Below are positions 19,205 to 59,884 of a stretch of 64,000 nucleotides of DNA, piece by piece (position 1 is the first letter of the stretch; each line of letters opens with the position of its first letter). Under the pieces are notes generated by a model. It was given only the letters and a program-made list of their open reading frames with translations. It was not told the DNA's origin and did no database searches. The stretch is from a virus. Location of the stretch: the IMG/VR virus record IMGVR_UViG_3300023174_007844, positions 16,399-80,398 of that record; one strand, written 5' to 3'. A program made the translations under genes and the position numbers.

Positions 19205-20101
19205 ATGTTTACAAAAGAATTTATTAAAATTAGTAAAGTGCTTGATGAATATGGTTTACATAGACAAGCTGATAATTTATTGAAAATTGCCCAACTTGCT
19301 ACTGATCCAAAAAAATTTTATGGACCTACACAAACAGATACAGTAAAGATTAATCCTGATGATTTTGTTAATTATAAAAGTTTAGTATCAACAAAAACAG
19401 ATCTTCAAAATAAAATAAATAGCTTAAAAAAGGGTGATAATACAGATAAAAATGTAGCTCTCAGTTTAGCAACCGAATTAACAAATTCATATAAAAATAA
19501 TAAAATAGATTATTCTTCATACAAAAAACTAATTCAAGACTTAAATTCAAAAGCAAAAGCAAATGATTACAAAATACAAGATGCAGTTGCTATTGGCCCA
19601 ATTAATCCACGAGCTTATCCTGATCCAAGCACAATAAATGAAACAGCTTCGCAAGGTCGTGGTAGAACTCAAAATCCTGACGGATCTTTCACTGATCAGA
19701 ATATACCTATCCAGCTTGCTTCACCTTTTGAAGGAGTAACAGGCAAAGGAGAAACAGCTTTTCCAAATAGAGAGTACAGAAACTTACCTGAATTACAAAA
19801 AGATTGGAATGATTATTTTACAAAGCCTGAATTCAAAAATTCAATACAACAAAGAATTGATGAGATACAAGCAAATGATATAAAGAATAATACAAAAACT
19901 GACACAAGCAAATTAAAAGCGTTGTTAGATAAATCAAATTCTCCAGATGGATTGCAAGTGGGTGATTTTGGAAATGCTGAAGAAACAACCGTGTGTGATA
20001 GTACAGGGAAGTGTGAAAAAGTGAAATATGCGCCAAATAATACATTGCCTACACAAATTTATGGCACAGAATCTAATCCAACTTTTAAGCCTAACAGATA
20101 A
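19205..20101 (+). CDS. Tagged hypothetical protein (LD..G...AD..KIAQ leader)
   Basis: MFTKEFIKISKVLDEYGLHRQADNLLKIAQ. Confidence 0.7.
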   Translation: MFTKEFIKISKVLDEYGLHRQADNLLKIAQLATDPKKFYGPTQTDTVKINPDDFVNYKSLVSTKTDLQNKINSLKKGDNTDKNVALSLATELTNSYKNNKIDYSSYKKLIQDLNSKAKANDYKIQDAVAIGPINPRAYPDPSTINETASQGRGRTQNPDGSFTDQNIPIQLASPFEGVTGKGETAFPNREYRNLPELQKDWNDYFTKPEFKNSIQQRIDEIQANDIKNNTKTDTSKLKALLDKSNSPDGLQVGDFGNAEETTVCDSTGKCEKVKYAPNNTLPTQIYGTESNPTFKPNR

Positions 20102-20105
20102 TAAA

Positions 20106-20297
20106 ATGCCAAAACCATTACATGATTTAGTAGATAAATTATTAGATAATCCTGATTTTTATCCAGAAAAATCTAAAGATGATAGAGAATCTACAGCTTG
20201 GGCAATTGCATATTCAGATTATAATAAAAATAAGAAAAGAAAAAAGAAATCATTTAATTTAAAAGAATATCGTACAGCACAAAAACCAGATCAATAG
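20106..20297 (+). CDS. Small basic protein, ChaB-like, with C-terminal FNL motif
   Basis: Likely start MPKPLH; ESTAWAIAY; ends KKSFNLKEYRTAQKPDQ. Confidence 0.5.
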   Translation: MPKPLHDLVDKLLDNPDFYPEKSKDDRESTAWAIAYSDYNKNKKRKKKSFNLKEYRTAQKPDQ

Positions 20298-20324
20298 ATC
20301 TGGTTTTTTATTTATAATAGTTTT

Positions 20325-21032
20325 ATGACAAAACTATCGCTTATTATGCTTACAAACACTGTAAATAGTGATATTTACAGGATGACACAAAATGCATTAG
20401 ATTCTCTTCATAATTCCATTGGATCTGAGAATTTTAATGTAGTGTTGGTGGAATCAAACAAAGATAGAGAATGGGATTATCGTCATGTAAACTTTTATCT
20501 TAAACCGCCAATTGATTTTAATTACAATACATACTTAAATATAGCAATTGAAAACTGTGATTCTGAATATATTGGGATTGTAAATAATGATGTAAATTTC
20601 CATAAAGATTGGTGGGTCAAAATGGAAGCAGCTATGATTAAGCATGAACTTGACACAGCTTCTCCTAGATCACCCACTGAACAAAATGGAATTGTTCCAA
20701 GAGCTGAGATTAAACACAGATTTACTCCTGAAACTATGGTGAGAGTGGGATTTGAACTTATCATTAATTTTTGTGGATGGTGTTGGATTATGAAGAAAGA
20801 AGTGAAGGATTGGCTCTTTCCCTTAGATGAACAATTTGCTTTCTTTTTCCAAGACAACGATATTATTATGAGATTACAAGAAAAAGGCTGCAAACATGGA
20901 ATGGTTGCAGCTTCAAAGGTAGATCATTATGGGCAAAAATCTCATGGAACATTCAAGGATCAAGAAGAATACATGAAAAATACATTTGCTTTAGAAAAGA
21001 ATTTTATAGAAAAATGGAGGCATCGAATGTGA
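20325..21032 (+). CDS. Glycosyltransferase family 2
   Basis: VVLVES, NYNTYLN, IGIVNNDV, LDEQF..FFQDND, VDH. Confidence 0.8.
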   Translation: MTKLSLIMLTNTVNSDIYRMTQNALDSLHNSIGSENFNVVLVESNKDREWDYRHVNFYLKPPIDFNYNTYLNIAIENCDSEYIGIVNNDVNFHKDWWVKMEAAMIKHELDTASPRSPTEQNGIVPRAEIKHRFTPETMVRVGFELIINFCGWCWIMKKEVKDWLFPLDEQFAFFFQDNDIIMRLQEKGCKHGMVAASKVDHYGQKSHGTFKDQEEYMKNTFALEKNFIEKWRHRM

Positions 21033-21047
21033 TGCCTCCATTTAGTT

Positions 21048-22567: not shown

Positions 22568-23038
22568 TTATTCTGGGACAATTAGCTTCTCATATGTTTC
22601 AAAAAATTCCTGAGAAGCAATCCTGTACACTTCAAGATAATTTGGAGAAGGTGAAACAATATAATCTCCAGGCTTTAATGACATTAATCTGCCCCATTTT
22701 GCTACAAATTCAAGTTCAGAACCATAATATCTACAAGCAAGAATCTTACCTTTTGGGATGTAAATTGCACCTTGTTCATAATAATAGAAAAATTTATATC
22801 TACTAAACAACATATCAGAAGGAACGATATATTCTTCTTGACATTCTGTTTGTAAATTTTTCACTACAAAATCGCCTTCTTTTGCATAATTTGTAGTTTC
22901 CAATCCATCAGCGGTCCAAGTTTCTATATATTGATTTAATTGGGCAGGATAAGCATAAATTAAACAAGTTTTAAAATACTCTTGTCCATTGTCTCTTATT
23001 TCAGGAAAAAAATAAGAGTATGCTTCATCTTGTGTCAT
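22568..23038 (-). CDS. PGDYG-like protein
   Basis: Internal duplication AKEGDFVV / LKPGDYIV, ends FFETYE. Confidence 0.6.
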   Translation of the reverse strand: MTQDEAYSYFFPEIRDNGQEYFKTCLIYAYPAQLNQYIETWTADGLETTNYAKEGDFVVKNLQTECQEEYIVPSDMLFSRYKFFYYYEQGAIYIPKGKILACRYYGSELEFVAKWGRLMSLKPGDYIVSPSPNYLEVYRIASQEFFETYEKLIVPE

Positions 23039-23883
23039 CAGGATTCAAGCATTTGTTCGATATTGAAAAGATTAGTTCCGATATCTCTTAGATTGGTATA
23101 TATTTCTGTTAGCTTTTTTACTTGTTCTTCAGGAAGATTATTAGGATTTTCAGCAGTGTTTACCATACGATAATTTTCATCATAATTGCTTTTGACATCC
23201 CCAATTACAGAGGATATAAAACTTTGCATATCATCTAATTTTCTAGAAATTTCATCTACATTTAATTCTGATAATTTAGAAATTACTTCAGAATATTGAT
23301 CAGATGACGTGCCAGATTCATCTCCTAATTCAACTTCTGACCCTCTTCTAATATCTAATTCATCGCGGGTTATATCGTTTTTCTTAAGCCAATCTAATTG
23401 TTGTCTGGTAGGATTTGTGTAAATAGTTGCATTAGCTCTACCATTATTCAAGTTTATTCTCATAGCACCAGTGAGTTCAGAAAGTACGTGTCTATCAGAT
23501 CTATCTTTCAATGCTTCTGGATTTACACCTAATCTTGATAGTAAGTATTTATCAAACATTACGTGAGATCTTAAATTAGGAGTGACAGAACCATCAGGCA
23601 TTACGTAAAATGCTTCATATGGTGTGCTAAAATGTGTGTGGGTTTCTCTTGATCCACTTACCCAAGGACTAGATTGATCAAATTCAGACATAATTTTAGA
23701 AATTTCTGAATTGATAGCTGCAACCATTTCTTGTTCAGATCCATACTTTTCAATTAATTTTCTTTTGATTGTATCTGCATCATCAGTTGATGGATCTATA
23801 TAAGATTTAGAACGAAGCTCATTTTGAATAATTTGTTCTGCTTCTTCTTTGGAAATCGCTTGTTTAATAAATGAATACCACAT
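23038..23883 (-). CDS. MWY-leader protein
   Basis: Likely start MWYSFIKQA at 23883 behind AGG-N19-GTATAT-N7; YVMPDG..H...RI..PTRQQ domain. Confidence 0.7.
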   Translation of the reverse strand: MWYSFIKQAISKEEAEQIIQNELRSKSYIDPSTDDADTIKRKLIEKYGSEQEMVAAINSEISKIMSEFDQSSPWVSGSRETHTHFSTPYEAFYVMPDGSVTPNLRSHVMFDKYLLSRLGVNPEALKDRSDRHVLSELTGAMRINLNNGRANATIYTNPTRQQLDWLKKNDITRDELDIRRGSEVELGDESGTSSDQYSEVISKLSELNVDEISRKLDDMQSFISSVIGDVKSNYDENYRMVNTAENPNNLPEEQVKKLTEIYTNLRDIGTNLFNIEQMLES

Positions 23884-28874: not shown

Positions 28875-31574
28875 CTATAATAATTTAACATCAGGGAAGC
28901 TTGTCAATACCTCAAATCCCATGTTGTCCCAGTGTCTTTCATCAGCAAAAGGTCTGAAATTAATCCAATATGAGTTTTCAGGACCATAAGTTCTAACTTC
29001 ACCAATTTCATTCCATGTATGGTAGATCAAGTGAGCAAAATTAACATTTATATCTTCGAATGGAAAATCAACTGGCAAAGTAGAATCAGCTACTAAATAA
29101 CCATCTTCAATTGCCACCACTCTATTTTTGGATATATATAAGTCAAATTGTGATCGTCTATCCAATCCTTGCCAAGTTCTATTTAATGGCTCGTTTAATC
29201 TTTGAACACTAGGTCTGAAGAAAATATCACCTTCAAATAAACCTGTAGTTGGATTTTTTGAAGCTCTGTAAATTATTGCACCAGAACGAGTAGTACAATA
29301 AGCATCCATCAATTTTGTAAGTTTATTTTTTGAATCTTGACTTACCCACCAATAATCTGGGTTGAAATCAATATTATCTAATACTTTCAATGTGTCAGAA
29401 GTAAGTTCATACTCATTGACACCACCAAAGTCAGCAAATCTAATCCAAGTTGATCTAGGTACAGCTCCAGTATTCATAGTAAAAGCTGGAAATTTACCAT
29501 TGTCATTAAAATTAGCAGTCCATTTTATTTCAGTAAAAGAAGGTTGATCATTAATAGAATTCACTTTGAATGTACCAACTTTATATTCAGTGCGATAATC
29601 AACTCTTCTATAAGGCGCTGGTAAATTCCAAGGGGCACTATCTCTTCCAGCAAATTTTACTGGAATATTGTAAGATTTTCTAGAGCCATCTGGATTATAA
29701 CCAGTGTCTACATTCATATTGTAACTGTTAGCATTTATTGCCCATCTGAATAATTTACCAGATAATGTATTTTGTGCAATTTTGTCAGCTGCTTTACCAG
29801 AATATACTACTTCTCCAGCAGGCAACAAAAGAATATCACACCATCTTCTGCCACTAAAATGGGGATCAACTTCAAATGTCAGGTGTAATACTTTGCCACC
29901 AGATATATTTGCAGTTTTCTTCGGGCTCATCAGCATCACGCCATTACTAACGTGTGATGGAGTTGATGATTGACCCAAGGTTCCACCATCATATATAGTG
30001 TCCATAAAGTGAGAACCCATTAAGAATACGGTTGAAGCAGATGTATCAAGATCATCTAAGAAGAATGACCATTTATCGTTTTCATACCATCTTAAAATGA
30101 CATCACTTTTGTTCCAATATTGCCAATTTCTTCCAAATCTTTGTTCTACTACATCTAACTTTTGTGGCATTTGAACAATCGGTTGGAAGTTTCTAAAGTT
30201 GTCAAAGAATACTTGTTCACCAGCTAAAGTTTTTTGAATTGTGGTTACTTTATATGGTGCTGATTTTGTAAGTACTATTGGATTATTAGATGGATCTCCG
30301 TGACCATTTACTCCAGCATGAACTTCACCACTTGGACCACTTGCACCAGGACCTATCACGCCATCAATTTGTTGATATGGACCAAACTTATCTAATGCTT
30401 CAACAATAAGATTATATGATTGGTTGCTTGTCAAACCATTCATTTCAACCATATTATAGCCTGAAGAATATTTAACAGTATTTGGATTATTTTCTACATA
30501 AACTTTATAGTCTGCAGCACCAGGAACCAAATCAAATTTTACAACAACACTGTCATCGTTTGGAGTGTATCCTGTAATATTAACAGGAGTTGAAATTGGA
30601 TCTGGTGGACCAAATCTTGTTATTATATCTGCTGCTGGGCCAAATGTTTCTTGCACTGTAAAATGATTTTTATTCACAGAAGCAACAACATATCTGTAAG
30701 TTTTGCCAGATATTACATCTTTGTCTATGTAATATTGAGACCATAAATTGGCTGCAATTAAAGTTCCATCTCTGTAAATATTATATGCATTTGGAGAGTC
30801 CTGGCCATTAATTTGTTGATCTTGCCACTTTATGAAATTTCTTGGCTTTCCATTATTCCATTCAGGGACAGCAACATATTTGCCAGGAGTTGATGGAGGT
30901 CTAGTAGTCCATCCGAAATTATAGTTAGGAGCAAATTCACCTCTTGCTAAACTTAAAGCAGAAGGCAAAGATTCTAATCCATTTTTATCAACTGCGGTAA
31001 CTGTATATGTCCAGCCTTCACCAAACACCAATTGACTTACTGTAAATGAATTAGTATTCGAAGAACCAATTTTTTGACTGTATCTGTAAATATTGTAGGA
31101 TACAGCTTCAGGACTAGGATCCCAAACTAACTGATCATAAGCACCATTATTCCACAAACCAAATGTTCGTAAATTGACAGGAGCTTCGGGATTCTTCAGA
31201 ACTAATAATGGAATAATTGCAGTGGAAACATTTGACATCTGCAAAAAACCAGATGGTACAACACCACAAACATAGTAATCCCATTTGTCACGGTATTTTA
31301 CATTTCTATCAATGAAAATATTCTCGTTATTTACAAGTTTCGCATAAGGCTTATAATAATCAGGTTTGGTACCTTGACCAACCTTATAAATAAAATAACG
31401 AGTGCATTTAGGTATTAAGTCCCATCTTAATTTGACGTGATAATTAGATGGAGTACCCACGCAGTAGCACAATTCTACTTGAGAAGAAAAATTCTTTACT
31501 TGTGGTGGTTTTTGAGCCCACGCACAGGAAACAAATGTGTATAAAAACACAAATAAAACAATAGCTTTCTTCAT
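28875..31574 (-). CDS. Secreted multi-fibronectin-type-III protein
   Basis: GGAGG SD, signal peptide MKKAIVLFVFLYTFVSCAWA, repeated W...YNIYR...Y.VTAV FN3 patterns. Confidence 0.75.
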   Translation of the reverse strand: MKKAIVLFVFLYTFVSCAWAQKPPQVKNFSSQVELCYCVGTPSNYHVKLRWDLIPKCTRYFIYKVGQGTKPDYYKPYAKLVNNENIFIDRNVKYRDKWDYYVCGVVPSGFLQMSNVSTAIIPLLVLKNPEAPVNLRTFGLWNNGAYDQLVWDPSPEAVSYNIYRYSQKIGSSNTNSFTVSQLVFGEGWTYTVTAVDKNGLESLPSALSLARGEFAPNYNFGWTTRPPSTPGKYVAVPEWNNGKPRNFIKWQDQQINGQDSPNAYNIYRDGTLIAANLWSQYYIDKDVISGKTYRYVVASVNKNHFTVQETFGPAADIITRFGPPDPISTPVNITGYTPNDDSVVVKFDLVPGAADYKVYVENNPNTVKYSSGYNMVEMNGLTSNQSYNLIVEALDKFGPYQQIDGVIGPGASGPSGEVHAGVNGHGDPSNNPIVLTKSAPYKVTTIQKTLAGEQVFFDNFRNFQPIVQMPQKLDVVEQRFGRNWQYWNKSDVILRWYENDKWSFFLDDLDTSASTVFLMGSHFMDTIYDGGTLGQSSTPSHVSNGVMLMSPKKTANISGGKVLHLTFEVDPHFSGRRWCDILLLPAGEVVYSGKAADKIAQNTLSGKLFRWAINANSYNMNVDTGYNPDGSRKSYNIPVKFAGRDSAPWNLPAPYRRVDYRTEYKVGTFKVNSINDQPSFTEIKWTANFNDNGKFPAFTMNTGAVPRSTWIRFADFGGVNEYELTSDTLKVLDNIDFNPDYWWVSQDSKNKLTKLMDAYCTTRSGAIIYRASKNPTTGLFEGDIFFRPSVQRLNEPLNRTWQGLDRRSQFDLYISKNRVVAIEDGYLVADSTLPVDFPFEDINVNFAHLIYHTWNEIGEVRTYGPENSYWINFRPFADERHWDNMGFEVLTSFPDVKLL

Positions 31575-31645
31575 TTTCAACCTCCCCAGGTTTATTTTTT
31601 GGTTAGAGAGCTATTGTTTTATTCTTGATTTAATAGGGTGATACT

Positions 31646-34595: not shown

Positions 34596-34619
34596 AAAAC
34601 CCCCAAGAGGGGGTTTTTT
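34594..34619. terminator. Bidirectional terminator
   Basis: AAAAAACCCCC-AAGA-GGGGGTTTTTT between convergent genes. Confidence 0.85.
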
Positions 34620-34621
34620 AT

Positions 34622-42764: not shown

Positions 42765-42778
42765 GGGAGCTTTTTTAT

Positions 42779-44556: not shown

Positions 44557-44911
44557 AATAAGAAATACAAGTGGTGGGTGATCCGAAACCTTGTAAATAT
44601 CTCACTTTCACTGATTCAACAAATCTGCTTGTATCATCAGGAATTATTTCAGCTCTTACTAATAGATCAACAATAGGTTTTACAATATTGTCTGGATCGC
44701 ATTTTAGTTTCCATTGAAGATCGGCAAGAATTAGAATTTCTATTTCAATTGGATAATTTGTTGCTGGTAATAAATTGTCTTTAATGATTGAAATGTTTTT
44801 ATCAATCCAATCATTATATTTTTTACTTTTCACCATTTTGCCACGAGCAATAGGCGCATACATTTTGTTTGCAGAGAAAGGTTCTTGGATAGTGCAAGAC
44901 TTTTTAAGCAT
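44540..44911 (-). CDS. rusA: RusA-like Holliday junction resolvase
   Basis: PFSANKMY, DPDNIVKPIVDLL, IIPDD; likely start MLKKS at 44911. Confidence 0.8.
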   Translation of the reverse strand: MLKKSCTIQEPFSANKMYAPIARGKMVKSKKYNDWIDKNISIIKDNLLPATNYPIEIEILILADLQWKLKCDPDNIVKPIVDLLVRAEIIPDDTSRFVESVKVRYLQGFGSPTTCISYSIVDG

Positions 44912-44961
44912 GAAGGTTTTATACAGAGCAAATGTGAAAGCCAGTATGGGGGTGGGAAAAA

Positions 44962-45552
44962 ATGGATACTTTTTTTTGTGAATTGGGCAGTGATAAGTAT
45001 ATAAGAGAAAATTTTTTTTCTGACTATCAATACAAAGGGACAATGGTTGAAGTTGGAGGGGGACATCCAGAATTATATTCAACATCAAAACATTGGATAG
45101 ACAATGGCTGGAGAGCGATCATTTTTGAACCACAACCTAAATTTTTTGAAATGCATAAAAATTTAAACAATGAAGTATATGATGTTGCAATTTCAAATGC
45201 TTGTGGTGAAGATATAGACTTTCATATTTGTAAAGATTCGATGGGTATGTCAGCTTCAGCTTTAGCACATAGAATTGGACAATACAATTTAGATCAAATA
45301 ATTAAAACTAACACTATAACTTTGGACAAAGCTTTAGATGTTATTGATGTAAATAAAATTGATATTGTAAATATAGATGTTGAAGGCTGGGAATTGGAAG
45401 TTATGCAGGGTTTTAGCCCAGAAAAATATAATTTTCCTCTTATTGTACTTGAAAACTTTACTAGAAGTTCTTCATATATAGAGTATATGGAAAAAATTGG
45501 TTATAAATTAATTTGGAATCTTGAATATAATTATTTATTCCAACATGAATAA
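44962..45552 (+). CDS. FkbM family methyltransferase
   Basis: VEVGG, FEPQP, TLD, IDVEGWELEVMQG, IVLEN. Confidence 0.88.
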   Translation: MDTFFCELGSDKYIRENFFSDYQYKGTMVEVGGGHPELYSTSKHWIDNGWRAIIFEPQPKFFEMHKNLNNEVYDVAISNACGEDIDFHICKDSMGMSASALAHRIGQYNLDQIIKTNTITLDKALDVIDVNKIDIVNIDVEGWELEVMQGFSPEKYNFPLIVLENFTRSSSYIEYMEKIGYKLIWNLEYNYLFQHE

Positions 45553-45593
45553 TAATTTTGTATTGATATAAGAATAAAGGATACTATTTCCTA

Positions 45594-46679
45594 ATGTGGT
45601 ATAAAATAGCCCAGCAATTGCAACTTCCTGGTTTAGATGTAGAGCAATCTTCACCAACAACAAGAGAAAAATCTAAGCCAAGAGAAGAATCACCAGAACT
45701 TTTAGAAACTCAAAAAAATCCTCAAAGTTTATTCTTTAGTGATTGGGCTAAAGGTCATTACGTGCCAGAAGAACCTGTCTATCACGGAACAACTCACGAA
45801 TTTGATAGATTTGATATTGACAAAGGTTCAATGAGTAATTATTTTGGTCCAGCATTTTATTTTACTAGTGATGAAGAAGATGCTTCAAAAAATTACACTG
45901 GTACTGGGCCTGATCAAGAAAGAAACATTGAAAATCTTCAATATAATTTGCTTGATCAATATGATGAAGACGAATATTATCTATGGAATTTATATAGTGA
46001 TGATCCAAGATATAGTAGAGAATTCAATGAAGACGGTAAACCATATAACCCAAGTTATCTAGCAGAAAAAATTGCCAGAGATACAATTTTAGGACCCAAT
46101 AAACCTAGAGTAATTCCTGCTCACGTTAGAATGAAAAACCCAATTCATCTAACTAGTTCACAGGATGCAGAACATCCAGAAAAAGTTTTCATTGATGATA
46201 TAGAAGGTAGTATGGACTTTTTAGGGAAAAGAATCAATCCTTCTGACAACCATAATTTGAGCACAGTTATATCAAAACTTCACAATATTATAGTGGACTA
46301 TTGGGATTATGATATTGCTAATGAAATTTGTGAAGAATTAGTGCAAGATAATTCTGTTGGATTTGATGAAGAAATTTCAGCCTCTTCATTGATCATGGAC
46401 CTAATTAAAAAATTAGAATTTTATGATAGTGATCAAGATACTCAGTTTAAAGGTGATATTGTCAAAAGATTTATTAATTCACTAGGACATGACAGTATTG
46501 TCATGGATCCTAATCAATTTTTCAGAATGTACTCTCAAAAGAAACCAATCAAACATTACATCACCTGGAATCCAGAAAACATTAAACACGCCAGAGAAAA
46601 TATAGAGTTTGATCCAAAAAATCCTGTTATCACTGCTAAGAGTGGTAAAATTAATTTATGGAAGAATTCTTTGCTGTAG
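45594..46679 (+). CDS. ADP-ribosyltransferase-like (ART-PolyVal type) protein with MWY leader
   Basis: VYHGT...FDRFD...FGPAFYFT...A..Y, MKNP, GHDSI. Confidence 0.65.
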   Translation: MWYKIAQQLQLPGLDVEQSSPTTREKSKPREESPELLETQKNPQSLFFSDWAKGHYVPEEPVYHGTTHEFDRFDIDKGSMSNYFGPAFYFTSDEEDASKNYTGTGPDQERNIENLQYNLLDQYDEDEYYLWNLYSDDPRYSREFNEDGKPYNPSYLAEKIARDTILGPNKPRVIPAHVRMKNPIHLTSSQDAEHPEKVFIDDIEGSMDFLGKRINPSDNHNLSTVISKLHNIIVDYWDYDIANEICEELVQDNSVGFDEEISASSLIMDLIKKLEFYDSDQDTQFKGDIVKRFINSLGHDSIVMDPNQFFRMYSQKKPIKHYITWNPENIKHARENIEFDPKNPVITAKSGKINLWKNSLL

Positions 46680-47020
46680 TTTTCATCGAATGTATGATGG
46701 AAAATAATAGATGTTTCTCTGACAAAGATTTTTATAAATTATTAAAAACCCAAAGACTAGATAAATCAAAAGTAAATTTCAATCAACTTATGCAAGCATT
46801 TTTAATTGAATTTGAATTTGATAATTATGAGATTTTAGACAATATATGGCAGCCTAAAGGATCATTTGTTTCTCATAAAGCAATTTGGAATATAATTGAT
46901 GAATTAGAGTTACATTTAGAAGTGGAAAATTCATTGGGTGGATTTTACGAAACAAGTTGTGATGTAGTACAGAAAATTAATAATTATCTTTGGTTATGCG
47001 AAAAAGAAGCCTCCCAATAA
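46658..47020 (+). CDS. Hypothetical protein
   Basis: 120-aa ORF. Confidence 0.55.
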   Translation: MEEFFAVVFIECMMENNRCFSDKDFYKLLKTQRLDKSKVNFNQLMQAFLIEFEFDNYEILDNIWQPKGSFVSHKAIWNIIDELELHLEVENSLGGFYETSCDVVQKINNYLWLCEKEASQ

Positions 47021-47055
47021 AGGGGGGCTTCTTTTTTTATAAGAAACTTATTGAT

Positions 47056-47520
47056 ATGTATGCTGAAAAACTCTTAAGGATAGCAAGTAAATTAGATAGC
47101 TTAGAACAGTATAAGTTAGCAGATAAATTTCTAAAACTTGCTCAAGATATGTCTGTTCCTTATTATGTATATCCCACTCAGCAAAAATATGATTATAGAA
47201 ACAGAATACCAATGAAACGAGATTTCACTGGCAAATCTACAACAGAAATAGATAATAAGTTTGGTCAGGATGCAAAAATATATTTACAACAATTAATAAA
47301 AGATCCATTATTATTTGACCATCCACAATCAAAAATAATGTTAGACACTATATTAAATGATCCTGACTATAAAATGAATCAATCCTCTTTAGTCAATATG
47401 GTTAATATATATCGAAATCATTATGAGCAACTAAATGACAATAGAAATGATATTCATGCAATTGCTGATTTGGAACCAGAATTACACAAGCACTTAGACA
47501 ATATGTTGAGTAAAACTTAG
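47056..47520 (+). CDS. Tagged hypothetical protein
   Basis: Likely start MYAEKLLRIASKLDSLEQYKLADKFLKLAQ at 47056. Confidence 0.7.
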   Translation: MYAEKLLRIASKLDSLEQYKLADKFLKLAQDMSVPYYVYPTQQKYDYRNRIPMKRDFTGKSTTEIDNKFGQDAKIYLQQLIKDPLLFDHPQSKIMLDTILNDPDYKMNQSSLVNMVNIYRNHYEQLNDNRNDIHAIADLEPELHKHLDNMLSKT

Positions 47521-47529
47521 GAAAACTTT

Positions 47530-49317
47530 ATGTGGTACAACAGAACAATTTTAGCAGCAATACAAGATGCAATCAACGCCTTGCAATCAAAAGGTGTAAG
47601 TGATCAGATTATTCAGTTTGTGCACTCTTTGCCTAATGACAAAAAAGGTAAAGCAATTGGTGCGTTGAATCAAAATCCTTCTATGATGATTGATGATTTG
47701 AAAAGTTTATTCGAATCAGGTTATAAGCCTTCAAGTCAGGAATTGCAACTTGTTAAAGATTATGATCCAAAATTTCAAAGTTGGGCTTTATACCAATACA
47801 AACAATTAAGAGCTAACAAATTAAATGATGATCCAAAAGATGATAGATGGGAATATAAGCAACCATTAACTGGTTATGCTGGCATTAAAGATGATCTAGA
47901 TAAGGTTCACGATTTTTTTAGACATCATACTCTAGATAATCCTAACTATAACATTGGAACAAAATCATTTCAAGAAGCTTTTGATGATTCTGATGAGTGG
48001 CATAATGCTATGGCTCAAAGAGGATCTGGAAAATTCTATTTACCATTCAAGAGAGATGAATCTGGAGAATTGATTGACGAAAAGATTGTTCATAGATTTG
48101 AAGATGGATCTATGATTGTAAGAGTAGAAGATCCAAACGATTTAGATGTTGAAGGCAATTTTATGCATCACTGTGTAGGCTCATATGCAGACAGTGTTAA
48201 GTATGGAGATTGTACTATTTATTCTTTGAGAAATAAATTTAATAATCCAGAAGCAACTATTGAAGTTGGCAGAGATGGAAAAGTTAAGCAAATCAAGGGC
48301 CCAAGCAATTCTGAAATTCACGATGAGGATAAAGTAGAAAAAATTGCAGAATTCTTTGAAGGCAGAGATGACATTAAGAAAAAAGCTGGAGAAGGTTGGG
48401 TTCATCAGAGAGCTAGAGAATGGGATCCTAGCGAAGTAGATTGGTCTATCTATCCTGATGATTTGAGATATTCTATAACTGAGGCTGCTTACGGTCCATA
48501 TCTTGAAGATTATGATGATGAAGATCACGGAGACTTTGCTAGATTTGGAATTACTGCTAATGAGTTTGACCAAAATGAATTTACTGAGCAAAATATAAGA
48601 AATGTTGATATGGCTGATATTGTCAAAGAAGCAACTAAAGCTATAGATGAAGGATTGAAAAGCAAACCTTATGGAAGAACTTTTTCTTTAGAAGATTATG
48701 ATATCAATGAATTAGCTGACACTGTTGTAAGTGTTGCTTTTGATAAATTAAAAAGAATTGTAGATGACATTTATTTACCTGATCCAACACAAGAACCAGA
48801 TTTTTATGAGCGTCGTGGTGGAGTAGAAGCATACAAACTTAAAACAGCAGAAAGTTTATTAAGCAATAATCCATTAACAGATTTGCTTTATCATTTTGCT
48901 GATCGTTATGATGAATATGCAAGATATATGGATGATAATTTTGGTTTTAGCTTGGATGAGAATGAATTTAATTTAGATCAATCTGCTTTTGGGGCTATGG
49001 ATAATTCTTCAGATAAATTAAGTTTAGAAATAGCTAAAAAGATTTTTGAAAAATATGAAAATGATGAATCAGTGCAGAAGTTTGAAGAATTACTAGGAAC
49101 AAAGTTCATCTTACCTAATTTGCAAGATTATGATGTTGAATATAAACCAAAAATGAATTATATCACTGGTAAAGAAATGTACACAGAAGATCCAGCTCAA
49201 TTAAGATTCCAAGATCTTCCAGAAGGTGAATCTTTCAATTTAGCTAGACATAGAAAGAAACAACAGAATCTTGAAGATGATAATTTAGAAATTCCTTTTG
49301 AAGATGATTTTGAATAA
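47530..49317 (+). CDS. PcfJ-like domain protein with MWY leader
   Basis: LDVEGNFMHHCVGSY...IYSLR...ATIEV...QIKGPSN; C-terminal FNLARH. Confidence 0.75.
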   Translation: MWYNRTILAAIQDAINALQSKGVSDQIIQFVHSLPNDKKGKAIGALNQNPSMMIDDLKSLFESGYKPSSQELQLVKDYDPKFQSWALYQYKQLRANKLNDDPKDDRWEYKQPLTGYAGIKDDLDKVHDFFRHHTLDNPNYNIGTKSFQEAFDDSDEWHNAMAQRGSGKFYLPFKRDESGELIDEKIVHRFEDGSMIVRVEDPNDLDVEGNFMHHCVGSYADSVKYGDCTIYSLRNKFNNPEATIEVGRDGKVKQIKGPSNSEIHDEDKVEKIAEFFEGRDDIKKKAGEGWVHQRAREWDPSEVDWSIYPDDLRYSITEAAYGPYLEDYDDEDHGDFARFGITANEFDQNEFTEQNIRNVDMADIVKEATKAIDEGLKSKPYGRTFSLEDYDINELADTVVSVAFDKLKRIVDDIYLPDPTQEPDFYERRGGVEAYKLKTAESLLSNNPLTDLLYHFADRYDEYARYMDDNFGFSLDENEFNLDQSAFGAMDNSSDKLSLEIAKKIFEKYENDESVQKFEELLGTKFILPNLQDYDVEYKPKMNYITGKEMYTEDPAQLRFQDLPEGESFNLARHRKKQQNLEDDNLEIPFEDDFE

Positions 49318-49323: not shown

Positions 49324-52300
49324 TTATATCTTTTTTCTTAAAATATAGGTTAGTTTATCTGCTAACCTATATTCTTTTTTAAAATCCAATTTTTGAGCGA
49401 TTTTCACCATAGAGTTTACAAAGGCAGTGGTAAGTTCTTCATCTTCTTCAGGTACATCTTCTTCTGACGCAAATGGATCAGGCAATTCTTTTTGTGTTTC
49501 AGGCGGTGTTGGTCTTTTTCCTTTCATCACTTGGCCAGTTTCTTCATCAAAATATCCAGTGCCATATTTTGATTTTCTTTCATATGCAAGAATTTTCGGA
49601 GCAAGGTTAGGATACATATGAACTAATGCTGCTCTTATCTCTGGCATTATATTTACATAAACATCTCCGTTCAAAACTTGCATTTCAAAAAATTTAGGAT
49701 AATTTCTTAATAAATGTAATTGATGATTTAAATTTGGACGATTTCTAAAATAACTAAATATGTCTAAATTATAAAAATTTGGATCTTCTTTTACTTCTGG
49801 ATAATAATGTGTATACAAATCCAAAAATTCTAACATAATATCTGGTGTAAAGTCTTTGAAAGAGTCGATTTCTTCATCACTAAATTTTCTTTTTTCTAGT
49901 ATTTTTGAGAGGAATTCAAATGCATAACTTCTACCACGATGTAATACTCTGTAAAATTCAGATCTTACATATCTGTTGCCATCTAAAAATTGATTTATAT
50001 AGTCTTCATATAGCCAAGGTGTTTTTTCAATGTCTATATTAGACATAAAATATCTAGCAGAAATGTTATTCATTTTTCTCTGCAAAAATTCTTTAATTTC
50101 TGGATCTTCTAAAAATTCTTGTGGAATAAACCTTAAAATGTTTGCAAAATCATTTTCATTAAAATTTAAATTACTTCCTATCCAATCAGCAAAATGATCA
50201 ATATTCTTAAAGAAATTTTTCCAGAAATTTATATCTTGTATTGCATTTTGAAATTCTTGAATAGCATCTCTGAAATTTTCTTTTGCCTCATCACTCATCT
50301 CAACTTCTTCAAATTTCTTAAATAATTTGCCATCATTGTAAATAGCCCATAATAAAGTTTGATTTGCATTATGAGGGATAATTTCTTCTGGTCTATCTTT
50401 GTATGCGTAATGAGCGTCTTTTAAGATTGTTTGTTCGTGCTCTTTAAGATCAAATGCAAAATTTATGGTTGGATTATTACTCCAATCATATTGATAAGTT
50501 CCACTATATTCGTCAAAATTATTAAATGAAAATTCACGTAAAAGATCTACATTTTTTATTTGGTTAATTAATGAAAGATCAAAAGGATCGCTGGGATTGT
50601 AATATTTAGTAATATCTTTGGAAGGTTTGGGACATAAAATTGAATACTTTACTTCTTCAAATACCCCAAGTTCTTTTGCTTTTTCAAAATCATTTTTATC
50701 AAAACCAGTTGCCATTGCCACTTCTTTAATAAGTGATTTATCCCCTGATTGCAATACGACATTTTTTAAATCATTTTTTGGAAAAGCCGAAGTGTAATCT
50801 ACTAAATCATTATCTGTCAATCTATTTTTTGCATACAATAAAAATAATTTTGGATCTTCAAAAATTAAATTTCGTACACCATTTGGAACAAAAGTTTTTA
50901 CAGTGCTAATATATTTGATCAATAAATCTCTGTCGTTTAAATCTAATAATAAATCAGCATCATTAAGGCGAACTCCAATACCAGTTTGTAAGTTATCGTT
51001 TTCTATCAAAGTTTCAAGATAAATTCTTAAAAAATCTGGTTTTTCTTTTAAGGTTGGTTGTGCAATTTCATCTATACCGCCCTGTTTTTCGATTAATTGT
51101 TCAAATAAATCTTTTCTATTTAAGTTTATTAAATCAATTTGCATAAGAGGGCTAAATCTTCTACCACCTATAATTTGACTTCTTAAATATGAAGTAAGTA
51201 AATTTTTGTTTTTTCTAAAAAATTGATATTGCGTTTCAGAAAGTTGCAAACCAGTGTTGACATATTTCATCAACAAATCTTCACCACCAACACTTCTAGA
51301 TAAATATTCTAAAACTTCATCTTTTACACGTTTACCTAAACCCATCCATCTTGAAGTATAGAATTTAGCATCAGGGTTATTAAGGATGTACGCAATACCA
51401 GATCTATCTGAAACCTCTTCTATGATATCTAAACTATTTTTATCTATTCTTTGAATGTCACTATCTTCGCCATTGACTTTAGATTTTCCAGATTGCCATA
51501 AAAGTATATCTTCCACACCCAAAGCAGCTATATAGTTAAAAGTGCCATTTTGTAATCTTTCTTCTGTAGACTTGGGTTTGTTCTTAAGAATTAATTCTTC
51601 TTGACCAGTTTCAGGATTTGGTCTTGTTGCTTGTAAATTAATTCCCTTGCTAGTTAAGTATTGAGAATACTTATCCCAATCCCATCCATTTGTAAGTTGA
51701 TGTCCGGTTATATTTGGAATGTCTGTTAATAAAACATTTTCTGAAGCAAAATCAATTGCAACTTTTCTTTGATTTTCTGTAGGAGGATTGTTATCAAAAA
51801 CTACAAAAAAAGAAGCATCGTGACTATCTCTATAAGATTGCCACATATTATTTGGGCCTTTATAGCCAATACACCAACTTGTATCATCACCAACTAATCT
51901 TCTACCATCGTTGGCATTATTTATCTCAAATATCCTTATAGAATTATCTTTATTTGCTACAACAGGAACATCTTCTGTTTCAGTGTTTGTAGCTTGTTCT
52001 TCAGCTTCTAAAATAGGAAATTGAGCGTGTATATATTCTGTTAATTTAATCGCATCATCAAAAACTTCGTCGTTTATTTTGACAGCATTTTTACTAACTG
52101 AAAATTTAGTAATTCTTCTTGAGTCAATATATTTTTGTATAGCTTCTACATATTCATCTGCTTCAATATTACGAGCTAATATCCAAGCAGCAAATACTTG
52201 ATACTTTTGATCATATTTCTTTACTGTTTCTCTTAAGTCTTGATAATATTCTGCATCTTTACCCAAATGATTGCAAATTGCTTGAATATCTTCTTTTATG

Positions 52301-52335
52301 CCAGCTGTGATGATCCTAAAACTATACCTTTTCAT
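49324..52335 (-). CDS. Large protein with TSWCIG domain and C-terminal tag
   Basis: GDDTSWCIG...NMWQSY...FFVVFD; ends MVKIAQKLDFKKEYRLADKLTYIL. Confidence 0.7.
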   Translation of the reverse strand: MKRYSFRIITAGIKEDIQAICNHLGKDAEYYQDLRETVKKYDQKYQVFAAWILARNIEADEYVEAIQKYIDSRRITKFSVSKNAVKINDEVFDDAIKLTEYIHAQFPILEAEEQATNTETEDVPVVANKDNSIRIFEINNANDGRRLVGDDTSWCIGYKGPNNMWQSYRDSHDASFFVVFDNNPPTENQRKVAIDFASENVLLTDIPNITGHQLTNGWDWDKYSQYLTSKGINLQATRPNPETGQEELILKNKPKSTEERLQNGTFNYIAALGVEDILLWQSGKSKVNGEDSDIQRIDKNSLDIIEEVSDRSGIAYILNNPDAKFYTSRWMGLGKRVKDEVLEYLSRSVGGEDLLMKYVNTGLQLSETQYQFFRKNKNLLTSYLRSQIIGGRRFSPLMQIDLINLNRKDLFEQLIEKQGGIDEIAQPTLKEKPDFLRIYLETLIENDNLQTGIGVRLNDADLLLDLNDRDLLIKYISTVKTFVPNGVRNLIFEDPKLFLLYAKNRLTDNDLVDYTSAFPKNDLKNVVLQSGDKSLIKEVAMATGFDKNDFEKAKELGVFEEVKYSILCPKPSKDITKYYNPSDPFDLSLINQIKNVDLLREFSFNNFDEYSGTYQYDWSNNPTINFAFDLKEHEQTILKDAHYAYKDRPEEIIPHNANQTLLWAIYNDGKLFKKFEEVEMSDEAKENFRDAIQEFQNAIQDINFWKNFFKNIDHFADWIGSNLNFNENDFANILRFIPQEFLEDPEIKEFLQRKMNNISARYFMSNIDIEKTPWLYEDYINQFLDGNRYVRSEFYRVLHRGRSYAFEFLSKILEKRKFSDEEIDSFKDFTPDIMLEFLDLYTHYYPEVKEDPNFYNLDIFSYFRNRPNLNHQLHLLRNYPKFFEMQVLNGDVYVNIMPEIRAALVHMYPNLAPKILAYERKSKYGTGYFDEETGQVMKGKRPTPPETQKELPDPFASEEDVPEEDEELTTAFVNSMVKIAQKLDFKKEYRLADKLTYILRKKI

Positions 52336-54466: not shown

Positions 54467-54955
54467 ATGAAAAAAGTAATTGCTGGATACATAGAACTCG
54501 CAAATATTCTTGATGATGCTGGACACGAACAAGAAGCGCAAGAATTTACTGAACGTGCTGTCAAACTAGCTCAAACTCATCAATCATCAACTAATCCAAG
54601 AAAATTAGAATCTTTTAAAAGTATGGTTAATCAAGACGCAGCAAAAGCAACTGATTTAATTATGCAAGCAATGAAAGGTGAAATTTCAAAAGATATGCTT
54701 AATTCAGAAATAAAAAGCATGTTGAAAAAACAAGAATCATATAAGAAAAATGAAAATATCAGTAAACATGATGAAGATATATTATTAAATAGCATAGTAA
54801 ATAATAATAAAACCAAATCATCAGATGGCCCAAAGTTCAAAACAGTTCAAGAAGCAAGAAACTATTACAGCCAAAAACATGTATTTAGAACTACTGAAGA
54901 AGCTGAACAATTTGAAAAAGAAAAAAATCAATTCTTTAAGTCGCAAGGAAGATAA
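54467..54955 (+). CDS. Tagged hypothetical protein
   Basis: YIELANILDDAGHEQEAQEFTERAVKLAQ. Confidence 0.7.
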   Translation: MKKVIAGYIELANILDDAGHEQEAQEFTERAVKLAQTHQSSTNPRKLESFKSMVNQDAAKATDLIMQAMKGEISKDMLNSEIKSMLKKQESYKKNENISKHDEDILLNSIVNNNKTKSSDGPKFKTVQEARNYYSQKHVFRTTEEAEQFEKEKNQFFKSQGR

Positions 54956-55427: not shown

Positions 55428-55817
55428 ATGATAATGAACAGACGAATCTTAATATCAATGAATGAAATTTGTGAAGAATTAGATAAATTGAATCTTGTGG
55501 AAGCATCTAATGAAATAACACGAGTTATGATGAAAATTGCACAAGAAAACACTAATCTTCTTGAAGAAGGAAGTTTAGTTGATTCTCCTCAATTTGCTGC
55601 TTGGACAAATTTTGGCAAATTTTTAGCCAAAAAAGATCCAGATTTTATTGCTCCAATAAAACCTAGAGTTTCAGTGATAACTTATGAAGATGTAACTGAC
55701 AAAGCACTTGCAGAATATCATACTTATAAAAATAACAAAAAACAAACTTCTAAATTTACTTATGAAGAAGAAAATAAACTCAAACAATTAGCATTAAATG
55801 CAGATAGGGCAAGATAA
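55428..55817 (+). CDS. Tagged hypothetical protein
   Basis: MNRRILISMNEICEELDKLNLVEASNEITRVMMKIAQ. Confidence 0.7.
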   Translation: MIMNRRILISMNEICEELDKLNLVEASNEITRVMMKIAQENTNLLEEGSLVDSPQFAAWTNFGKFLAKKDPDFIAPIKPRVSVITYEDVTDKALAEYHTYKNNKKQTSKFTYEEENKLKQLALNADRAR

Positions 55818-56161
55818 TGGGAAAATTTATTAAAACAGCGCTTCTTCAACAAAAAGAAAGATTAGAACAACAAGAAGTACAATTAGAAGAGGTGAGAAAA
55901 GGCGAACTTTATAAATCATTACAAGATGGCCTTTCAAAACATCACAAAACAGTGGATCCAAAGAATTTTGAAGATTTATTTGAAAAAGTGAGAAAAGGCA
56001 ATCCTAGCGATCCATTAGAGATCCAATTAAGTAAAGCTGGCCTTTATAAACAAAAAAATAATGTAGAAGACAAAACATTTACAGAAATATTAGAAGAAAT
56101 TGAAAAAGGTTTTCCTAAAGAAATTATAGAGATTCAATTAGATCCTAGAAGATATGAATAA
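55817..56161 (+). CDS. Hypothetical protein
   Basis: MGKFIKTA start; TAATG coupled. Confidence 0.6.
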   Translation: MGKFIKTALLQQKERLEQQEVQLEEVRKGELYKSLQDGLSKHHKTVDPKNFEDLFEKVRKGNPSDPLEIQLSKAGLYKQKNNVEDKTFTEILEEIEKGFPKEIIEIQLDPRRYE

Positions 56162-56612
56162 ATTAGTAAGAATAGCCCAACAATTAGACAAAAATGGCCA
56201 ATATAAAGCTGCTGACAAGATAGCTTCCATTTTACTTATGGCCATACAATATAAACAAGATTTAGAAGATGGTATTAGGGCTTTATTCAATTATTATGAT
56301 GAAAGAACATTAACAAGATTACTAAAACAAACAAATATTTTAGAAAATAATGGTGATATATCTTCTCGCCCATTCGATTATAACGAATTGATGCAAGAAC
56401 TAAATAATTTTGAAACAATATCACCAGAAGACATGCCAACAAGATCAGGAAATAATAATTATCAAAATTTAGAAGAAGTAAAATCTTCTATCATGAAAAC
56501 AATTGAAATTATAGACAAATTCCAAATATCAATAGCAAATGCACACGATGTTCAAAGAGAACAACAAAAGAAAATACAAGATTTACAGGGTGATATTATT
56601 CCCGACGAGTGA
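56154..56612 (+). CDS. Tagged hypothetical protein
   Basis: MNKLVRIAQQLDKNGQYKAADKIASIL. Confidence 0.7.
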   Translation: MNKLVRIAQQLDKNGQYKAADKIASILLMAIQYKQDLEDGIRALFNYYDERTLTRLLKQTNILENNGDISSRPFDYNELMQELNNFETISPEDMPTRSGNNNYQNLEEVKSSIMKTIEIIDKFQISIANAHDVQREQQKKIQDLQGDIIPDE

Positions 56613-57779: not shown

Positions 57780-57867
57780 TGCTTGGAAATAATACATATA
57801 AATAATATAAAGGGAAAAAATAATTTGATTTGTAAAAAGATTATAACAACCTACACAGGAACAAAAA

Positions 57868-58689
57868 ATGAATAAGAGACAAATAGTAGCATCCCTAAAT
57901 AAAATAGCAAATGAACTTGACGATTCAGGTATGTACATAGAATCTAAATCTGTCACAAATGTCATGAAAAAATTAGCACAATCTAATTTTATCAAAAATA
58001 GATTTATTGAATTACACCCACAAATTCAACAAGAAATTGATAGACTAAAATCTGCAAAACCAGGCTCAGGGCTAATTGAAATATCAGATATTTACACTAA
58101 TAATAGATATTGGAATATGCCATCATTTATTGATGAAAAAAATATTTCACAAAGAATCAAGCAACTACAAAGCCCAGAATATCAAAAAACACTTGCAGAA
58201 AAAAGACTTAAGTTCATTTCTAATAAATTAGAAACAGAAAGATTATCAGATACCGATAGACAAACATTATTAAACGATCTTAAATATCTTAAACAATTCG
58301 TGTCAGCTCAAAATCTTTCTGATAACCCAGAACTCAATTCCCAAAAACAAACACCACAAACCGCATACGAAAGAATGCAACAAACAGAAGCTGAAGAACT
58401 AGATAAACTGAATCCTAAACCTATTGATTATAACCAAAAAGTATATGAGATTGTCTTTAAAGAAATGAGGAAAGCATACCCAAGTAAATCAGATACAGAT
58501 ATAGGACTCTCATTGTCTAATAAAACAAATCTTCAAGGATATAAAGAAATCAATAAAAATCCTGAACTTAGAGATAATATCCTAAATGCTATAAGAATTT
58601 TTTCTAGCAAATTTATGGATGCAGAACAAGCATACAGAAAACTAAGCGGAATATTTATGAGCAAAATAAGTTTTTCGGGAGTGAGATAA
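57868..58689 (+). CDS. Tagged hypothetical protein
   Basis: MNKRQIVASLNKIANELDDSGMYIESKSVTNVMKKLAQ. Confidence 0.72.
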   Translation: MNKRQIVASLNKIANELDDSGMYIESKSVTNVMKKLAQSNFIKNRFIELHPQIQQEIDRLKSAKPGSGLIEISDIYTNNRYWNMPSFIDEKNISQRIKQLQSPEYQKTLAEKRLKFISNKLETERLSDTDRQTLLNDLKYLKQFVSAQNLSDNPELNSQKQTPQTAYERMQQTEAEELDKLNPKPIDYNQKVYEIVFKEMRKAYPSKSDTDIGLSLSNKTNLQGYKEINKNPELRDNILNAIRIFSSKFMDAEQAYRKLSGIFMSKISFSGVR

Positions 58690-58717
58690 AAAAGAGGAGC
58701 AAAGCTCCTCTTTTTTA
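58687..58717. terminator. Bidirectional terminator, copy 1 of 3
   Basis: AAAAAAGAGGAGC-AAA-GCTCCTCTTTTTT. Confidence 0.88.
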
Positions 58718-59308
58718 TTTAATCACATCTTTTAAAGTTTTACTTATTAAATCCCAATTTTTGCCTCTAATAATATCATCTTTACTCTTATTAAATATTT
58801 CTATAACCTTACTATCAAAACGCACAGAAACATAAGAATTACCACTAAATAACCCTTCTAACAACCTGAAAACTTTTTCATCATCGCAATAAAACCCAAT
58901 ATAACCCACCACTTCTTTCTTTCCACTACATATATCGCTAAACTCTCTATAACTAAAAGGAATCTCCCAATTAGGATCCATTAAAAAATATTTATTATCA
59001 TTCTCGCAATTATTTAACCATAAACCAATAGTGCGAATCTTTTTCCTATCACCCAAAAGATTTTTCCAAGCCTTATCAATGAAATTCTTTGTGCGATTAT
59101 GGCCCTCGCAACTTGGCAACGTGTCATAACCATTATTGTTCAAATACTTTACAATACTCTTAATTTTTGGATCTAAAGTGTCATCAAGCTCTGCACTATT
59201 AAAGCTATCACTCTTGCGCTTCTTAAAATAATACCAAAGATTATGATCCTCACTGTAAAACCAATCATAATACTTCAACTTGTCAACACCAATTGGACTA
59301 ATTCTCAT
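58715..59308 (-). CDS. Hypothetical protein with LN..G..T..SCEGH motif
   Basis: LDPKIKSIVKYLNNNGYDTLPSCEGH. Confidence 0.65.
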   Translation of the reverse strand: MRISPIGVDKLKYYDWFYSEDHNLWYYFKKRKSDSFNSAELDDTLDPKIKSIVKYLNNNGYDTLPSCEGHNRTKNFIDKAWKNLLGDRKKIRTIGLWLNNCENDNKYFLMDPNWEIPFSYREFSDICSGKKEVVGYIGFYCDDEKVFRLLEGLFSGNSYVSVRFDSKVIEIFNKSKDDIIRGKNWDLISKTLKDVIK

Positions 59309-59389
59309 AATGTATTTTTATTCATATCAAAACAAGATTCCTAAAAGGATACAATAATAAATACTTAAAATATTACTATGGAGACCATA

Positions 59390-59884
59390 ATGAATAAAAG
59401 AATAATTTTATCATCCCTAGCAAATATAGCTGACGATTTTGAAAACAGTCACGAAATTCTTTTAGCTAATAGAATCAATCTAATTATGACCAAATTAGCT
59501 GAAAAAGAACAAGACTGCCCAGATGCAACACAAGATATTGAACTCAACCTCAAAAATAGACAAAAAGCTATCAATGAACACGGATATGGACCAGCTGACC
59601 CATCACAACCAAATGACAAATTCTGGAAAAAGAAAATGGATATGTGGAAAGTGGATGACCTATCAGAAGTGAAAAACATGCTATGCGGTAACTGTGCTGC
59701 TTTCGATATTACAACAAAAACAATGGACTGCATAGAAAAAGGCATAGGAGAAGATGCCACAGAAACCATAAACGCAGGAAAACTTGGCTACTGTAAATTC
59801 TTAAAATTTAAATGTGCAGCCAAAAGAACTTGTGACGCTTGGGTGACAGGCGGACCAATAACTGACAAAAAAGATAAGAAATAA
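59390..59884 (+). CDS. Tagged Cys-rich (metal-binding) protein
   Basis: MNKRIILSSLANIADDFE...LANRINLIMTKLAE; CGNCAAF, GYC, FKCAAKRTCDAW. Confidence 0.72.
   Translation: MNKRIILSSLANIADDFENSHEILLANRINLIMTKLAEKEQDCPDATQDIELNLKNRQKAINEHGYGPADPSQPNDKFWKKKMDMWKVDDLSEVKNMLCGNCAAFDITTKTMDCIEKGIGEDATETINAGKLGYCKFLKFKCAAKRTCDAWVTGGPITDKKDKK

Follow-up and report, generated by a model that had tools for sequence, protein, structure and literature searches.

Why do ten proteins that otherwise look unrelated carry the same short peptide at one of their ends? The question is raised by a 64,000-nucleotide stretch of viral DNA, referred to here as the window (bases 16399-80398 of the 80,398-bp IMG/VR virus record IMGVR_UViG_3300023174_007844, CheckV completeness 22%). 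A preliminary description of the window, made from its letters alone, had pointed to a portable peptide tag on ten of its proteins and had proposed that the tag docks diverse cargo on the prohead scaffold and is then clipped off. The answer that we favour is of the same kind: the tag may be a removable capsid-loading label, which would address its carrier to the capsid and would be trimmed away by a protease. Going by the sequence evidence set out below, we give this reading a probability of about 0.45.

All ten tag segments are indeed present and share one pattern. Nine of them start open reading frames (ORFs 19205, 33567, 35812 on the minus strand, 47056, 54467, 55428, 56154, 57868 and 59378), and one ends the 1003-aa ORF 49324-52335 on the minus strand. 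Leave-one-out profiles built from the ten window tags alone recovered 7 of the 10 at E<0.01. A profile made from 54 tags of three related genomes (G001, G004 and G006, introduced below), with which 662 stop-to-stop frames of the 80-kb contig were scanned, recovered all ten with E-values from 5e-15 to 1.4e-5. Its other matches with E<1 were two variant tags upstream of the window; there were none further inside it. Thus, the pattern read from the window holds when judged by genomes from outside it, and these genomes carry further tags of their own, about 25 in G001, 22 in G004 and 6-8 in G006. A variant subclass, FQKLAQ...LE..G....AN..H..F.K.SQ, which was overlooked by the first profile and found by clustering of protein termini, lies at contig bases 8479-9845, upstream of the window, and at positions 208450, 222633 and 224088 of G001.

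When the window region, the 1003-aa protein and ORF 56154 were compared by blastn and tblastn with 50,697 phage records, there were zero matches. Close relatives in IMG/VR were reached through the 1003-aa protein. They include G001 (358,269 bp, 89% complete), which is syntenic with the window's contig at protein identities of 45-99%. Other contigs with the tag are G004 (316 kb), G006 (300 kb) and G008 (261 kb), whose major capsid proteins are 97-98% identical to that of G001. Among the genes of G001 we identified those for the large terminase and the portal, one for a 1379-aa protein whose N-terminal domain is a head-maturation protease, and one for the major capsid protein, which has 284 aa and is 47.5% identical to gp27 of Bacillus phage G. 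The head module occupies 40-62 kb in G001 (loci L011-L012), 125-139 kb in G004 and 187-200 kb in G006. More than half of the sampled words of the DNA, which has a G+C content of ~31% in the window, occur in lake and freshwater metagenomes from several studies. Because of these metagenome matches and the capsid kinship with phage G, we assign the source to a clade of uncultured freshwater jumbo phages (300-360 kb) that are distant kin of phage G. The tag is absent from phage G itself, from Tunturi_5 and from the 485-kb record LR745208, all of which have the same capsid protein family, as well as from smaller phages with complete genomes that had come up as chance matches to a DNA pattern.

The tag was claimed to be a portable module whose cargos are unrelated, and this is supported. 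The cargos of the ten window tags have zero mutual BLAST similarity, and the cargos of 32 tagged proteins from two genomes form 28 clusters. When all 45-residue protein termini of two genomes were clustered, after removal of pairs that are alike beyond the terminus, the tag was the sole large cluster (37 termini), the runner-up consisting of eight termini with an ordinary nucleotide-binding fold. Among 1.84 billion representative proteins, a profile of 34 tags matched 1217 at E<=1e-3. In the 266 hits whose tag position was examined, 196 had a single N-terminal tag, 28 a C-terminal one, 2 an internal one, and 35 had two or three. The cargos, which range from ~60 to ~1000 aa, turn over rapidly: most are specific to a single genome despite the near identity of the capsid proteins. 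Searches of Pfam and PHROGs with 20 tagged proteins revealed no known domain or function in any cargo. The end of the conserved region is sharp. Similarity had been said to stop at an Ala-Gln pair. It does stop at a boundary, conservation dropping to background one residue past a [KR]-hydrophobic-[AS] triplet, but Gln occupies the next position in only 43% of cases; the real element is the triplet, with a basic residue (75%), a hydrophobic one and Ala or Ser (80%).

Some of the multi-tag proteins resemble adjoining tagged genes read as one, the inner tag retaining its own Met-Asn-Lys-Arg start; these could be true fusions, or could reflect lost stops or stop-codon reassignment in some relatives. 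Other multi-tag hits are tetratricopeptide repeat (TPR) array proteins, with scores for just two or three of their repeat units. Two or three tags are found on database proteins P0001-P0003, P0121, P0126, P0130 and P0213, and some tag matches in G001, G002, G004 and G008 cross a single TAG or TAA.

Two explanations that dispense with an addressing function can be judged on these data. Tagged genes lie in arrays (6 adjacent pairs vs 1.5 expected, p 0.002), and where small ones stand in tandem, local duplication is suggested. The tagged proteins might then be an ordinary paralogous family with a conserved N-terminal domain and a diverged remainder. Such a family would be hard to square with the range of cargo sizes, with a tag at either terminus, with an end of conservation that is abrupt and falls at one position, with almost as many cargo clusters as proteins, or with near-identical tags on wholly different bodies in the databases. 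We regard it as quite improbable. Under the second explanation it is the DNA that is conserved, the gene starts being regulatory sequence or cassettes for recombination; a constant 5' end next to a hypervariable body might, in principle, help cassettes to be exchanged. It is contradicted by the codons, which vary freely at conserved tag residues: 52% of identical-residue pairs use different synonymous codons, and Leu is encoded by both TTR and CTN. The same freedom is seen in the second leader described below, and we consider a DNA-level element next to negligible. Since codons at conserved residues vary, selection acts on the tag peptide.

What kind of peptide is it? The proposed helical hairpin is what AlphaFold2 returned for the tag alignment: a helix at residues 3-19, a three-residue turn and a second helix at 23-45, with a mean predicted local distance difference test score of 87.8 that drops after about residue 40. 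Tags are about 26-38 residues long and come in a short form and a form with an extra turn in the second helix (helix B). Their conserved positions (Ala 95%, Leu 89%, Asp 96%, Gly 82%, an aromatic residue 92%, Ala or Ser 99%) are those at which a TPR hairpin packs. The top-scoring database hits with many matching stretches were canonical TPR arrays of the kinesin-light-chain type in NB-ARC/NLR-like proteins, aligned repeat by repeat. In hhalign, the tag profile matched 59 repeat units of canonical TPR arrays with 96.9% probability (E 1.3e-10, 30 columns), although these units came from arrays that had themselves been retrieved with the tag profile. The tag thus shares with TPR_10 and TPR_12 the residue pattern over 30 columns and the helix-turn-helix form. 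Unlike TPR units, which occur in tandem arrays of at least three that build a solenoid, tags are single and terminal. The Pfam models TPR_2, TPR_8, TPR_10 and TPR_1 found a match in 1 of 34 tags, and that below threshold (best E 3e-4, ~20 bits vs a cut-off of 27). Against sequences in the Protein Data Bank (PDB) the tag profile gave nothing significant, the best hits being Nup93 and designed TPR proteins at E 0.04-0.3, and a Foldseek search of the PDB with the tag model returned generic hairpins only (E >=1.4). Because the model is a hairpin, the profile matches a TPR unit and the occurrence is single and terminal, we conclude that the tag is a solitary TPR-like unit and no new fold. It may have been derived from a kinesin-light-chain-type repeat or have converged on its pattern. 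A profile match to a known functional domain was one of the outcomes that the preliminary description had named as counting against its reading; the profile does match a known type, TPR units, with which a docking role stays compatible. Net charge ranges from -3 to +6, so that tags are not uniformly basic, and in the wider set the region downstream of the tag is rich in Asp, Glu, Pro, Asn and Gly. A candidate relationship to the N-terminal domain of ribosomal protein L12, as a mimic, was dropped; its sole basis was a 42-residue helical match to a viral L12 cluster among generic hairpins in an Atlas structure search.

A TPR-like hairpin might of course serve elsewhere than in the capsid. TPR units are general protein-protein interaction elements, and the closest structural matches of the tag are generic hairpins that dimerise or bind partners. 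The tag could accordingly be a docking or oligomerisation module for a hub outside the capsid, be it a host complex, a cytoplasmic assembly of the phage or other tags, the likeness of its boundary to a motif of head proteins (see below) being a coincidence. In the tag-tag version, single hairpins would pair into helical bundles, with the ~1000-aa C-terminally tagged proteins as platforms. The distribution of tagged genes, which are spread over the genome and lie mostly outside the head module, agrees with this idea, as do the natural proteins with two or three tags and the cargos that appear membrane-associated. No candidate hub was found, and two sets of observations, one concerning the boundary triplet and the other the links to head genes, are left unexplained by it. 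We therefore think such a hub rather unlikely and turn to these observations, which point to capsid loading.

The triplet at the edge of the hairpin recurs in head-assembly proteins. We counted [KR][LIVMFT]A in the 175 G001 proteins of >=200 aa and corrected for composition by shuffling within each protein. The 1379-aa protease/scaffold protein has 19 occurrences where 5 are expected, the 562-aa head protein 9 (expected 1.7), the 344-aa head protein 9 (1.5) and the 527-aa head protein 5 (1.0). These four head-module proteins hold ranks 1-4 of the 175 (z 4.2-6.3), and rank 5 is a tagged protein. By our own arithmetic, the chance that the top four would all come from the 14 head-module proteins of >=200 aa is ~3e-5. 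Seven control motifs (reverse, permuted, acidic for basic, Ser or Gly for Ala) were flat, with z from -2 to 1.2, and R.A and K.A are the top enriched gapped pairs in the 1379-aa and 562-aa proteins. In both G004 and G006 the top four are again head-module proteins. A weaker excess is seen in the annotated protease gp19 of phage G and its neighbour gp21, and none that is clear in the capsid protein and portal (z -0.1 to 1.3 by the same measure, phage G). The four-residue form [KR]h[AS][QE], with h for a hydrophobic residue, was tried as a head motif and rejected, as it showed no enrichment in head proteins. Since the three-residue form is enriched and the four-residue form is not, the motif ends with Ala.

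The triplet is also placed where a cut would separate tag from cargo. Of 48 N-terminal tags, 38 have it on the side of the hairpin that faces the cargo, and 7 of 8 C-terminal tags have it on that side too, within the first helix (helix A). We consider [KR]-hydrophobic-Ala a candidate cleavage motif of the head protease of this lineage. The protease domain of the 1379-aa protein matches phrog_18299 and, weakly, the NCBIfam model NF045541, which describes the protease part of prohead-protease/capsid fusions; it matches no T4 gp21 model and has no sequence relative in the PDB. The excess of the motif in head-module proteins and its cargo-side position at either terminus lend indirect support to the proposed clipping at K-x-A.

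Alternatively, the tag might address the capsid and stay on, much like the coat-binding helix-turn-helix of a scaffolding protein, with K-x-A reflecting nothing but TPR-like packing. K-x-A does align with TPR consensus positions, the residue after Ala is variable, C-terminal tags stop a few residues past the hairpin, and the remaining 10 of the 48 N-terminal tags have no strict boundary triplet. What a permanent tag would not account for is the enrichment of the triplet in head proteins that have no TPR character, where its reverse and permuted forms are not enriched, and the existence of short leaders that have the triplet without any hairpin. On balance we judge a tag that is never removed unlikely.

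The leaders just mentioned begin with Met-Trp-Tyr and form a second class, MWY[KR]x[AS]. They start 37 of 1114 proteins (3.3%) in G000, G001, G004 and G006, WY being the commonest dipeptide after the initiator Met, and in 31 of the 37 residues 4-6 form the triplet, with a basic residue at position 4 and Ala or Ser at position 6. As in the tag, codons vary. Genes with MWY leaders form their own arrays, interleaved with tagged genes, and encode a PcfJ-like protein, several unknowns and, in G001, a conserved gene product adjoining the portal. With them, the share of the proteome that carries such a signal sequence rises from ~6% (tags) to ~10%. We consider that the MWY leader, as seen in ORF 45594, probably belongs to the same system as the tag.

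Further links to head assembly come from gene order and upstream DNA. A tagged protein of 146-150 aa is conserved between terminase and portal in both G001 and G004. An unbiased discriminative k-mer search found AAAGG 12-80 nt upstream of 11 of 20 tagged genes and of 24 of 184 others (p 4.8e-5 before correction for the number of k-mers). Of the nine head-module genes preceded by a gap, five are among its untagged carriers, as are four genes that immediately precede a tagged one (p 0.002). TATAAT-like boxes are rare at tagged genes (4/20 vs 66/184). Because a tagged gene is conserved in the head module and AAAGG is common to tagged and head genes, the link of the tag to head assembly is indirectly supported. 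It is this shared upstream element and conserved head-module member, together with a hairpin-flanking triplet that is the very motif marking head-assembly proteins, that a hub outside the capsid leaves without explanation.

Capsid loading followed by trimming can be put together as follows. Tagged genes would be expressed together with head genes, and the hairpin would dock each tagged protein on the assembling prohead core. The head maturation protease, that is, the N-terminal domain of the 1379-aa protease/scaffold fusion, would then cut at [KR]-hydrophobic-Ala between hairpin and cargo, and the freed cargo would remain in the capsid and enter the host with the DNA. MWY[KR]x[AS], at 6-7 residues, could be a minimal version of the same signal. 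The docking partner, cleavage, packaging and ejection in this scheme are steps that we infer. A broader form of the proposal holds that tag and MWY[KR]xA constitute a general either-end capsid-loading code, read by the scaffold and erased by a protease of undescribed [KR]-hydrophobic-Ala specificity, with ~25-40 different and rapidly exchanged cargos (about a tenth of the proteome) that each virion would bring into the host; in that generality we find it conceivable, if doubtful.

Several observations weigh against removable capsid loading. The window's own contig has no head module, so that all head evidence comes from relatives, and no tag-like or cryptic tag element was found in scaffold-like or head-module proteins. 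The four enriched proteins are orthologous across G001, G004 and G006, so that the three genomes together provide a single observation. Once the number of k-mers is corrected for, the AAAGG result becomes borderline, and the longer regular expression first used for the upstream element was written after the sequences had been viewed. Depletion of the triplet in cargo bodies is weak and non-significant (24 vs 33.9 expected, sd 5.8). In helix B, K-x-A falls where the TPR consensus has its Ala (position 27), and its role could be structural and nothing more; in a full-length model of ORF 56154 helix B runs into a cargo helix without a linker. Finally, two cargos have hydrophobic, membrane-like segments.

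The individual tags in the window can be located as follows. On the plus strand, the N-terminal tag of ORF 19205-20101 (298 aa) covers 19205-19312 (E 7e-11), with K-I-A on the cargo side at 19283-19291, and that of ORF 33567-34595 (342 aa), whose cargo has two hydrophobic segments, covers 33576-33686 (E 3e-7), with R-L-S at 33669-33677. The minus-strand ORF 34622-35812 (396 aa) has its tag at 35696-35803 (E 1e-7); K-L-A lies in helix A at 35774-35782 and the tag terminates in IKEAQ, which is no strict triplet. Next comes ORF 47056-47520 (154 aa, plus strand), with the tag at 47056-47163 (E 4e-10) and K-L-A at 47134-47142. The C-terminal tag of the 1003-aa ORF 49324-52335 lies on the minus strand at 49327-49425 (E 5e-11), is preceded by an acidic linker and has K-I-A in helix A, on the cargo side, at 49396-49404. 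The remaining five tags are N-terminal and on the plus strand. ORF 54467-54955 (162 aa) has its tag at 54473-54580 (E 2e-7; K-L-A at 54563-54571) and is the only carrier of a window tag with a weak Pfam TPR_2 match. ORF 55428-55817 (129 aa) follows, with the tag at 55446-55550 (E 8e-10; K-I-A at 55533-55541), and then ORF 56154-56612 (152 aa), whose tag at 56154-56255 (E 8e-10) contains both R-I-A (56169-56177) and K-I-A (56217-56225). The tag of ORF 57868-58689 (273 aa) at 57880-57987 (E 5e-15; K-L-A at 57970-57978) belongs to the commonest subtype in databases, and that of ORF 59378-59884 (168 aa), a protein with a cysteine-rich C-terminus, lies at 59402-59509 (E 1.4e-5; K-L-A at 59492-59500).

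Five MWY leaders are found in the window. MWYKIAQ (45594-45614, plus strand) starts ORF 45594-46679, which adjoins tagged ORF 47056, and MWYN (47530-47550, plus strand) starts the PcfJ-like ORF 47530-49317, which lies between two tagged ORFs. On the minus strand, MWYKFAK (60895-60915) starts ORF 59914-60915, which adjoins tagged ORF 59378, and the less canonical MWYSF (23863-23883) starts ORF 23038-23883. The fifth, MWYRISA (42387-42407, plus strand), belongs to ORF 42387-42764. The PcfJ-like ORF 47530-49317 (plus strand) and the C-terminally tagged ORF 49324-52335 (minus strand) form a convergent block of large paralogous proteins, with counterparts at 72846-80511 in G001 and 34141-47680 in G004. 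In such blocks, one to three C-terminally tagged proteins of ~900-1000 aa, with a common N-terminal part of ~400 residues, stand beside PcfJ-like MWY-leader proteins of ~590 aa.

Replication genes (for a DnaB-like helicase, an AAA ATPase and SbcCD-like nucleases) occupy the left part of the window. An AAA ATPase encoded at 3897-5501 on the minus strand belongs to PHROG 8638 (E 1e-142) and shares ~30% identity with ATPases from phages of Mycobacterium and Pseudomonas. The 901-aa protein encoded at 28875-31580 (minus strand) matches "major tail protein" PHROGs in an Ig-like segment and has a sub-threshold rhamnogalacturonan-lyase beta-sheet domain. Judging by these matches, it may be a structural or host-binding protein amid non-structural genes.

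How does the tag compare with known addressing signals? The cargo-loading peptides of encapsulins and the encapsulation peptides of microcompartments are short, terminal (at either end) and joined by linkers, and they address diverse cargo to one shell; unlike what we propose for the phage tag, they are not removed, and their shells and sequences are different. The scaffolding protein of phage P22 has a C-terminal helix-turn-helix of ~40 residues that binds coat protein by a basic face, docks on the procapsid and can carry fused cargo inside. This hairpin differs in being part of a single protein rather than a tag family. Our PDB profile search found no sequence similarity to it, and the charge of the phage tag is variable. 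In giant phages, head and ejection proteins of SPN3US lose propeptides at A-x-E (PMC10052503). In such phages (SPN3US gp245, phiKZ gp175), many head and ejection proteins have leaders removed at a short motif that recurs in propeptide and scaffold regions, but the propeptides are not one common portable sequence, and the motif and protease family differ (PMC10052503). The closest parallel is phage T4. Its capsid targeting sequences, which are short and N-terminal, attach to the core, and gp21 then removes them at a motif by which core proteins are marked as well (PMC9026906). Like the targeting sequences of IPI-III and Alt (PMC9026906), the tag is one leader on unrelated, dispensable and fast-evolving proteins, it ends at a motif that also marks core or scaffold proteins, and its proposed fate would be the same: loading into the prohead core, trimming and ejection with the DNA. 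On the other hand, the T4 leader has 10-19 residues, is unstructured, occurs at the N-terminus only and has at its end the L/I-x-E that gp21 cuts, whereas the phage tag is a TPR-like hairpin of ~35 residues, stands at either terminus, ends in [KR]-h-A and belongs to kin of phage G whose protease is a different one. The evidence thus fits a T4-like logic made of different parts. Our literature searches found no description of the tag. New are the use of a solitary TPR-like hairpin as a signal, its use at both termini, its occurrence among kin of phage G, the MWY leader that accompanies it and the candidate protease specificity.

If this reading is right, the addressing of cargo by leaders, for which T4 offers a handful of proteins, would have been scaled up independently in a non-T4 lineage with a different signal. 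The head protease family, which has no assigned specificity, would gain a testable one, and a folded tag that works at either terminus could be used to try loading foreign proteins into large capsids. Injected phage proteins are usually anti-defence or host-takeover factors, and the packaged and injected proteins of abundant uncultured freshwater jumbo phages could then be listed from sequence alone.

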